A stretch of DNA of 10,089 bases from IMG/VR virus record IMGVR_UViG_2675903357_000009. One strand, 5' to 3'. This DNA comes from a virus (lineage: Duplodnaviria > Heunggongvirae > Uroviricota > Caudoviricetes). The notes below the pieces were generated by a model. It had not been told where the DNA came from. It made no database searches and saw only the letters and a list, made by a program, of their open reading frames with translations. Shown one piece after another: positions 9,300 to 9,808 of the stretch (position 1 is its first letter; each line of letters opens with the position of its first letter). A program made the translations under genes and the position numbers.

Positions 9300-9644
9300 T
9301 CATCGTAAAATATCCTCCACGCTTATCAGTCCGTTCCGCTCCAGATAACTCATCGCCTTATCCGGTAATTTGCAGTCTGGCTTCGCTTTCCTCAGTTGCC
9401 AGGTTAACTGCTTTACCAGCATGGTTAACTCATCGACCAGACGCTGATATCCCACTGGTTTGTATTCATGCAATTTACCGGCTGGCTCTGCTGCCAGCGA
9501 TACCAGTGCGATTTCCAGAACAGCAATATCCATCTTATATGTGCGGATGATGTCATGGTCGATTGTGCCCGGTATGCACAGTCTCTGTGCTTCAATAGTC
9601 TCCTCTGCGTGAGCTATTAACTGCTCTCTGGTAAAAGTCGTCAT
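9300..9644 (-). CDS. Hypothetical phage protein (114 aa); N-terminal region paralogous to the upstream 55-aa ORF
   Basis: ATG at 9644 overlaps the upstream stop (ATGA). The stop overlaps a further 27-codon hydrophobic ORF. Confidence 0.6.
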
Positions 9645-9808
9645 GCCGTAGCCCCTTCTTGATATTTTTCAAACCAGAACACAACCGGCTCTGCTTCCAG
9701 CGATGCCAGCGCAATCCGTGCCAGTTCCATTTGTTCACCACGGGTAAGCCCGTTTTCAAGCGGGTTTTTAATGAACAATTCAATACGTTCTTTGGTAATA
9801 GTGGTCAT
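9641..9808 (-). CDS. Hypothetical small phage protein (55 aa, [41 protein letters not shown]..)
   Basis: ATG at 9808 with GGAG 7 nt upstream. Below the ORF-track length cut-off. Shares MTT.T.E and IAL.SL.AEP motifs with the 114-aa protein. Confidence 0.55.

Follow-up and report, generated by a model that had tools for sequence, protein, structure and literature searches.

Results

Organization of the cassette

The subject of this study is a pair of small open reading frames (ORFs) that overlap on the minus strand of a 10,089-nucleotide (nt) stretch of tailed-phage DNA (Caudoviricetes; IMG/VR record IMGVR_UViG_2675903357_000009), hereafter the window, and that encode products of 55 and 114 amino acids (aa). 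A preliminary description of the window, made from its sequence alone, had presented them as tandem paralogous genes, the longer of which looked like the shorter plus a C-terminal extension, linked by an ATGA overlap within an operon whose first gene is cut by an insertion sequence (IS). Both the ORF listing and direct reading place the 55-aa ORF at 9641-9808 (-) and the 114-aa ORF at 9300-9644 (-). The linkage was confirmed by direct reading, as the TGA of the 55-aa ORF and the ATG of the 114-aa ORF share an ATGA at 9641-9644 (-), and the same overlap was found in all of the 79 related viral loci that were compared.

Each of the two ORFs can be divided into segments. Codons 1-41 of the 55-aa ORF (9686-9808 (-)) make up an EaA-type helix-loop-helix module, here called N0, which was delimited by PHROG profiles, AlphaFold2 (AF2) models and the ratio of non-synonymous to synonymous divergence (pN/pS). 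This module closes with a junction motif (9686-9715 (-)) at whose end breakpoints cluster when 56 long N0 genes are compared. The 14-residue tail and stop that follow (9641-9685 (-)) are left over from the 3' terminus of a gene for an HNH endonuclease, as judged from identity to a related locus (L094) and from a tail motif of HNH proteins. In the 114-aa gene, codons 1-54 (9483-9644 (-)) form the N1 module, a longer variant of the N0-type module according to BLASTP, a shuffle test, a hidden Markov model (HMM) and AF2, and the end of N1 is the junction motif of this gene (9483-9512 (-)). The remainder (9300-9482 (-)) consists of a linker, a C-module of three predicted helices and the stop, as defined by phrog_660, AF2 and invariant columns.

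The 55-aa ORF is preceded by a Shine-Dalgarno (SD) sequence, AAGGAG (9815-9820 (-)), which lies 6 nt 5' of its start and overlaps the stop of the upstream gene, a gene that encodes 87 aa in intact relatives. The 30 nt of the window immediately 5' of the 55-aa ORF are identical wherever this 87-aa gene precedes an N0 gene. An SD-like GAAGGGG for the 114-aa gene is located within the tail of the 55-aa ORF (9652-9658 (-)), 7 nt 5' of the ATG, and is weaker than the canonical AAGGAG. Two features expected of a coupled pair are present, namely a stop/start overlap and a ribosome-binding sequence inside the upstream ORF, and from the former translation of the 114-aa gene would be expected to be coupled to that of the ORF upstream. 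A third coupled ORF, absent from the preliminary description, was identified by direct reading and locus comparison: it would encode a hydrophobic product of 27 aa (9220-9303 (-)), and a second ATGA (9300-9303) is formed where its ATG meets the stop of the 114-aa gene.

Distant variants of one N-terminal module

The motif MTT(I/F)T(K/R)E opens both proteins, and a second motif, IAL(A/V)SL(E/A)AEP, occupies residues 32-41 of the 55-aa protein and residues 45-54 of the 114-aa protein. These shared N-terminal motifs, first noticed as MTTxTxE and IALxSLxAEP, were borne out when the proteins were properly aligned. BLASTP aligned residues 1-41 of the 55-aa protein to residues 1-54 of the 114-aa protein with 33% identity over 54 columns (E=1e-5). 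The Smith-Waterman score was 56, as compared to 23.2 +/- 4.1 for 5000 shuffles (z=7.9), none of which scored as high (0/5000), and z was still 7.3 after the initial MTT had been dropped. Both proteins are matched by PHROG profiles 60, 660, 3323 and 5117. Specifically, the 55-aa ORF matched phrog_3323 (1.3e-19) and phrog_60 (4.3e-18), the 114-aa ORF matched phrog_660 (8.2e-43), phrog_5117 (3.3e-09) and phrog_60 (1.5e-07), and the N0 module alone matched phrog_3323 (E=3.8e-15) and phrog_60 (E=2.7e-16). A custom HMM of the N-module gave 7.8e-28 for the 55-aa ORF and 5.2e-14 for the 114-aa ORF.

At the DNA level, N0 and N1 are 59% identical over aligned codons. N0 modules taken from genes with 18 different tails have a mean DNA identity of 94%, and the N0 of the window is 82-100% identical to the 5' ends of genes with these 18 tails. 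N0 and N1 are distant variants of one helix-loop-helix module. The description of the two genes as tandem paralogues therefore holds for the N-terminal ~41/54 residues, over which they are homologous, but not for a local duplication, considering the 59% DNA identity and the different mosaic blocks to which the modules belong (see below).

The AF2 model of the 55-aa protein has helices at residues 6-14 and 23-38, predicted with a local confidence (pLDDT) above 90, and a low-confidence tail. In the model of the 114-aa protein, the N-module has helices at residues 6-22 and 30-52 and the C-module has helices at 66-87, 93-103 and 109-113 (mean pLDDT 78; predicted template modelling score, pTM, 0.39). 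A helix-loop-helix fold is predicted for both N-modules. Structure prediction, which had been suggested in the preliminary description, gave confident helical hairpins but no fold match. Foldseek searches of both models against the PDB returned nothing at E<=0.001, and PDB sequence searches returned only chance matches (E ~0.1-0.5) to myosin-binding protein C, NadD and designed coiled coils. The sole significant match in BFVD was to a homologue, N15 gp45 (E=4e-4), which is 35% identical to the 114-aa protein.

A promiscuous module heading unrelated proteins

Homologue searches retrieved near-identical copies of N0 at the start of proteins of 53-411 aa. The sequences past EAEP(V/I) in these proteins are mutually unrelated, and their source names include Eaa, DUF551 and DUF550 (DUF, domain of unknown function). 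A profile search for the N-module recovered 1,982 clusters at E<=1e-3 and 322 at E<=1e-10 (clusters being defined at 50% identity), and almost every match among the top 150 begins at residue 1. Among 123 top representatives, the Pfam partners were DUF551 (28/123) and dATP/dGTP pyrophosphohydrolase (2/123), the rest having none. Clustering of 263 proteins yielded 15 classes of N-module and 59 classes of tail, some of the latter being frameshift artefacts. Nine N classes were seen ahead of the C part of the 114-aa protein and four ahead of the tail of the 55-aa ORF, which was also seen at the end of an HNH gene. The junction peptide of the 55-aa ORF is the most frequent junction variant, and stub ORFs of 53-64 aa recur among relatives. 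A module of 31-54 residues, running from MTTxTKE to IAL(A/V)SLEAEP, defines a large uncurated phage protein family. The family is one of lambdoid and P22-like phages, and its members include the P22 EaA-like proteins.

For N0, pN/pS was 0.09 (pS 0.23, pN 0.021; 32 distinct DNA copies with 18 tails), which argues that the N0 peptide is under strong purifying selection and that the module is therefore a working protein domain. Synonymous divergence peaks over the junction codons (pS 0.31), so that the DNA of the junction shows no special conservation. The likeness of module DNA between genes also provides homology for the exchange of C-terminal parts.

Searches of curated libraries placed neither product in a known family. 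No Pfam family, including PF13935 (Ead_Ea22), was matched at E<=1 by the 55-aa or the 114-aa ORF, and the C-terminal domains DUF551 (PF04448) and PF04447 were found only in longer relatives and not in these two ORFs. Scans of the 55-, 114- and 27-aa products, and of a 76-aa product annotated upstream, gave no match in Pfam, NCBIfam or PADLOC, the only hit being Hok, from a neighbouring gene. A literature search gave no match for the motif strings, and searches with EaA, Ead and Ea22 returned only entries of "unknown function" and the Ea22 analogy discussed below. The preliminary description had assigned no function, and at the biochemical level this stands, with no Pfam, NCBIfam, PADLOC, PDB or fold match.

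The 55-aa ORF as a joint between two mosaic blocks

Two independently distributed blocks meet inside the 55-aa ORF. The left block, composed of the 205-210 nt upstream (87-aa gene and SD) and N0, is found with 95-100% identity ahead of other genes, which encode 289, 300, 317, 332 and 411 aa. In 56/56 long N0 genes, the likeness to the window drops sharply within codons 37-42, corresponding to window positions 9683-9698. The right block (9219-9691) is 99.4% identical to the HNH-type locus L094, in which the 14-codon tail closes a 121-aa HNH gene (2639-3004) that has the same ATGA overlap with the 114-aa gene. The tail motif PVVFWFE(K/R)YQEG is kept in the HNH proteins of phage HK225, Edwardsiella phage eiAU and the T4-like phage GEC-3S. 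Because this conservation extends from HK225 through eiAU to a T4-like phage, the tail motif is ancestral to the HNH family. Residues 31-54 of the 55-aa protein match only positions 252-275 of phrog_2118, and the HNH/Cys-box catalytic core (PF01844), present in the 121-aa HNH protein, is absent from the 55-aa ORF. Loci L243-L245 also belong to the HNH comparison, and in the lambdoid HNH genes the codons of the tail motif hold the ribosome-binding site of the next gene as well.

These comparisons place the joint of the two blocks at about 9686-9691 of the window. The 55-aa ORF is an in-frame fusion between the 5' end of an EaA-like gene and the final 14 codons of a gene for an HNH endonuclease. 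It is a leftover of recombination, of the kind ordinary in phage mosaicism, instead of an independent paralogue. The notion that the longer protein equals the shorter one plus an extension is not tenable, as the 55-aa ORF has its own HNH-derived tail of 14 residues.

A survey of neighbourhood conservation, also suggested at the outset, revealed three types of ORF upstream of the 114-aa gene among the 79 close viral loci: the 55-aa N0 stub (57/79), the HNH gene (19/79) and a 61-aa stub with another module (3/79). The C-terminal end of the upstream ORF is alike in 79/79 loci, where it closes in (T/M)A, and the ATGA overlap with the 114-aa gene is likewise kept in 79/79, whichever of the three types lies upstream. 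The ATGA coupling is a property of the boundary at which the tail of the upstream ORF meets the 114-aa gene, irrespective of the identity of the upstream ORF.

The 114-aa gene and its 27-aa partner

The last 43 residues of the 114-aa protein match phrog_660 (E=1.4e-24), and the same C-module, with its invariant columns, also ends proteins of 160-199 aa. The pN/pS ratio was 0.31 for the C part of the gene and 0.39 for the whole gene, as compared to ~1 in both out-of-frame controls. Made of N1, a short linker and the three-helix C-module, the 114-aa gene represents the minimal complete form.

The 27-aa ORF is intact in 73/79 close loci and in 5/5 diverged loci inspected, and the block common to HNH-type loci stops at 9219, just past its stop. 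In diverged loci that carry a 120-aa homologue of the 114-aa protein, an unrelated acidic protein of 57 aa is encoded upstream and the 27-aa ORF is still coupled downstream. The product is probably a small membrane peptide. Judging from the loci compared, the stable unit appears to be the 114-aa gene together with its ATGA-coupled 27-aa ORF.

Short-homology recombination between modules

Natural recombinants of the cassette were also found. A 101-aa protein (P0031; 13 contigs; loci L246-L248, 1501-1806) replaces the two ORFs in the order 87-aa gene, 101 aa, 27 aa, and in 2/3 of the P0031 loci shown hok then follows the 27-aa ORF. The first 112 nt of the P0031 gene are identical to the 55-aa gene and its last 202 nt to the 114-aa gene, the crossover being located inside a 9-nt stretch, CATCGCTGG, of the junction motif. 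P0001 is a 167-aa protein in which a naturally occurring loss of 5 nt has joined the 55- and 114-aa ORFs. In further natural rearrangements of the cassette (P0020, P0156), other upstream genes or the N-module are fused to the ORF of 114 or 27 aa. Recombination at short homologies is rife in the region.

A third N-module gene is present upstream of the 87-aa gene in intact relatives. It encodes 146 aa, belongs to class MTTFTDKELIKE, is annotated as "Ea22 protein" and was located in L001 (7319-7759), L002 (9329-9769), L006, L010 and others; in the window its place is occupied by IS600. Co-resident module genes are nearly always of different N classes, as would be expected if identical tandem modules were unstable.

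As a separate observation, perfect Chi sites (GCTGGTGG) are abundant in the window, with 11 in 10 kb as compared to 0.35 expected from shuffles. One of them (9246-9253 (-)) lies within the 27-aa ORF, in an orientation that would stimulate recombination toward the 114- and 55-aa genes. Chi enrichment has been reported for some lambdoid prophages.

Prophage context and IS600

The relatives of the window are lambdoid (Qin/Rac-like) prophages of Escherichia coli and phage vB_EcoS-689R5. Along the coding strand, replication genes are followed by ead/Ea22-like, 87 aa, 55 aa, 114 aa, (27 aa) and hok/sok, and then by Rem-like, DUF968, RusA and Q. The region is the end of the accessory cluster of a lambdoid prophage early operon, of the "ea/nin" type, between the replication genes and DUF968-RusA-Q. 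In the phage record ON470583, the 55-aa ORF itself is labelled "EaA protein". Directly downstream of the cassette (8853-9178 (-)) we observed a hok/mok toxin ORF (Pfam HOK_GEF, 3e-23) with a sok antisense RNA (Rfam RF01794, 112 bits).

Upstream, the window holds the 3' two-thirds of the 87-aa gene (9819-10017 (-)), recognized by its phrog_1714 profile and by full-length relatives and truncated by IS600, whose terminal 72 nt occupy 10018-10089 (-) on the basis of IS600 identity and of comparison with inverted copies. Homology to E. coli prophages ends at 10017. The IS600 end shares 97.5% identity with copies of the element in 2,666 E. coli genomes, and 10018-10089 is a perfect inverted copy of 1-72 and of 3581-3652, the latter being part of a copy at 3581-3657. 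IS600 stands in place of codons 1-22 of the 87-aa gene, and the annotated 76-aa ORF (9819-10049) begins inside IS600, matching phrog_1714 over residues 10-76 (E=5.3e-37); the full-length 87-aa protein occurs in L002 and L246-248. Thus, the operon gene said to be cut by an IS is indeed cut, by IS600, but it is not the first gene, as intact relatives have many genes upstream. A terminator-like hairpin at 9684-9701 and promoter-like sites were found at chance level.

No complete E. coli genome holds the whole window. That the entire IS600 arrangement is found in none of them suggests a Shigella-like, IS-ridden host. IS600 copies or ends are located at 1-72, about 2397-3657 and 10018-10089, so that the window is bounded by inverted ends, and a second copy of the gene for antiterminator Q (2062-2463) is cut short by the internal IS600. 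A segmental duplication (846-2396 versus 3856-6319; 91-100% identity) covers the STnc100 small RNA, tRNA-Arg(TCT), tRNA-Met(CAT) and the 3' part of Q. The duplicated segments are two related prophage fragments joined by IS600.

Discussion

Taken as a whole, the reading that we hold with moderate confidence is that the N-module defines a family shuffled among early accessory genes and that the 55-aa ORF is a chimeric joint between an EaA-like gene and an HNH gene. Several steps of a possible mechanism can be proposed on the basis of analogy. Since an amphipathic hairpin of 40 residues is unlikely to be stable alone, the module would most probably oligomerise, for example as a four-helix bundle. 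Once oligomerised, it could serve as a common handle for variable effector parts, like the constant part of Ea22. The module proteins would be early accessory factors with an influence on the physiology of the host or the phage. As for the 55-aa ORF, it probably serves at present mainly to deliver ribosomes loaded at a strong SD to the 114-aa gene, whose own initiation is weak. In the window, IS600 separates the cassette from its promoter and the cassette may be silent.

Some observations weigh against this reading. Many loci have an intact and identical 55-aa ORF, the tail of which stands in frame behind four N classes, so this ORF may have a function of its own. The close relatives are all very recent (99-100% identity), which makes conservation little informative, and the 27-aa ORF, with a pN/pS of 0.73, is no more than a candidate coding sequence. 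Oligomerisation is inferred, the AF2 models being monomers and the pTM of the 114-aa model being low. Finally, the clustering of breakpoints could reflect selection for domain boundaries and not a property of the DNA, and synonymous divergence is highest precisely at the junction.

Alternative explanations were weighed against the same data. The first is that the 55- and 114-aa proteins form an obligate pair, such as a regulator and its effector, a toxin and its antitoxin or a hetero-oligomer, with the ATGA setting their stoichiometry. On the one hand, the two genes are adjacent and coupled in 57/79 close loci, the 167-aa fusion created by the deletion in P0001 means that their proximity is tolerated, and the homologous modules could heterodimerise. 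On the other hand, the upstream partner is swapped for HNH (19/79), for the 61-aa stub (3/79) and, in diverged loci, for the 57-aa acidic protein; it is deleted in the 101-aa recombinant of 13 contigs; and no toxin-antitoxin or defence model was matched in Pfam, NCBIfam or PADLOC. We regard an obligate pair as unlikely, and its toxin-antitoxin version was rejected in view of the variability of the upstream partner.

A second alternative, which we consider quite improbable, is that the module matters only as a DNA linker or recombination handle and that the small ORFs are relics of a decaying, IS-ridden prophage. Breakpoints do fall within 16 nt at the junction, a microhomology deletion between two module copies was seen, IS600 severs the cassette from its operon, and stubs of 53-64 aa recur. 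A role as DNA alone is nevertheless difficult to reconcile with the pN/pS of 0.09 for N0 in the face of substantial synonymous divergence, highest at the junction, with the pN/pS of 0.39 for the 114-aa gene as compared to ~1 in the wrong frames, with the confident AF2 fold, or with the presence of the module at the head of enzymes such as dATP/dGTP pyrophosphohydrolase.

A bolder proposal goes further than the favoured reading: the N hairpin would be an oligomerisation handle that bears specificity in a very large polymorphic family of early phage effectors (~2,000 clusters), with its 15 or more classes blocking cross-assembly of co-resident members, stubs acting as micro-protein competitors and the junction serving, like the VENN and Rhs junctions of polymorphic toxins, as the point at which effector cassettes are exchanged. 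We consider this a long shot. If true, stubs like the 55-aa ORF would poison or regulate full-length N0 proteins of the same or of superinfecting phages.

Last, a local tandem duplication yielding two paralogues, of which the longer gained an extension or the shorter lost it, is very improbable even though the genes are adjacent, lie on the same strand and have common start and junction motifs, as their modules are only 59% identical in DNA while N0 averages 94% to the modules of unrelated genes, the joint of two independently distributed blocks falls inside the 55-aa ORF, the tail of this ORF is HNH-derived and not part of the 114-aa protein, and in 19/79 close loci, as well as in diverged loci, the 114-aa gene stands without a 55-aa ORF. 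Tandem duplicates in the sense of genes that are each other's closest relatives and have common flanks are contradicted by the identity and flank evidence.

The favoured reading of the 55-aa ORF as an EaA-like/HNH joint in a shuffled family can be set beside several known systems. Residues 1-41 of the 55-aa protein are 83-100% identical to the N-modules of P22 EaA and of Eaa, DUF551 and DUF550 proteins, which have the same junction. EaA of P22 (317 aa) is listed as "Unknown" (PMC4837284). Like the ORFs of the cassette, EaA-type genes are accessory genes in the early operon of prophages of the P22-like and lambdoid kinds. EaA-type proteins run 100-400 residues past the junction, into Pro-rich linkers and DUF551 or pyrophosphohydrolase domains, whereas the 55-aa ORF ends after 14 foreign residues and the 114-aa protein has only a C-module of 45 residues. 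N15 gp45 (139 aa), the homologue of the 114-aa protein, has the layout of N-module, insert and C-module that is also seen in P0065, and differs from the 114-aa protein by an extra middle segment of ~25 residues.

Ea22 of lambda and Shiga toxin (Stx) phages offers a likeness in its organization, with a constant N part and a mosaic C part encoded in the early accessory region, and Ead/Ea22-like genes adjoin the cassette in relatives. The constant N-terminal and coiled-coil part of Ea22 is required for function and the full-length form is tetrameric, while its C-terminal domain is mosaic, with one variant carrying DUF551 (PMC10834534). However, the module described here does not belong to this family by sequence (PF13935 was unmatched) and is a short hairpin, unlike the long coiled coil of Ea22. 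Gene 31 of phage epsilon34 provides a precedent for the fusion itself, as an eaE-like N-terminus is fused there in frame with an HNH homing endonuclease (PMC2629481). In both cases the N-terminus of an ea gene and an HNH gene are joined in frame in a lambdoid early region; the two differ in that the HNH body is retained in epsilon34, whereas only its last 14 codons are left here, and in that the N-terminus is eaE-like there and EaA-like here.

A more remote parallel is found in polymorphic toxin loci. The toxins of these loci, such as CdiA with its "VENN" motif and Rhs with "PxxxxDPxGL", combine constant N parts with hypervariable C parts, and a short peptide junction serves for the exchange of cassettes. 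The likeness is one of analogy only, since the proteins considered here are small and cytoplasmic and have no homology to those toxins, no toxin/immunity pair and no secretion context.

The apparent tandem paralogues are a mosaic joint within a lambdoid prophage that is decaying and riddled with IS600, and the 55-aa ORF would be better annotated as a chimeric remnant than as a member of a gene family. More broadly, the N-terminal hairpin of ~40 residues, with its invariant junction, heads proteins in ~2,000 clusters and is in no curated library; a formal definition would allow better annotation of prophage genes that are now called "hypothetical" in their thousands. The N-module would also offer a concrete handle, perhaps by way of oligomerisation or a common partner, on the poorly understood ea, exo-xis and nin accessory genes that influence the choice between lysis and lysogeny in Stx and lambdoid phages.

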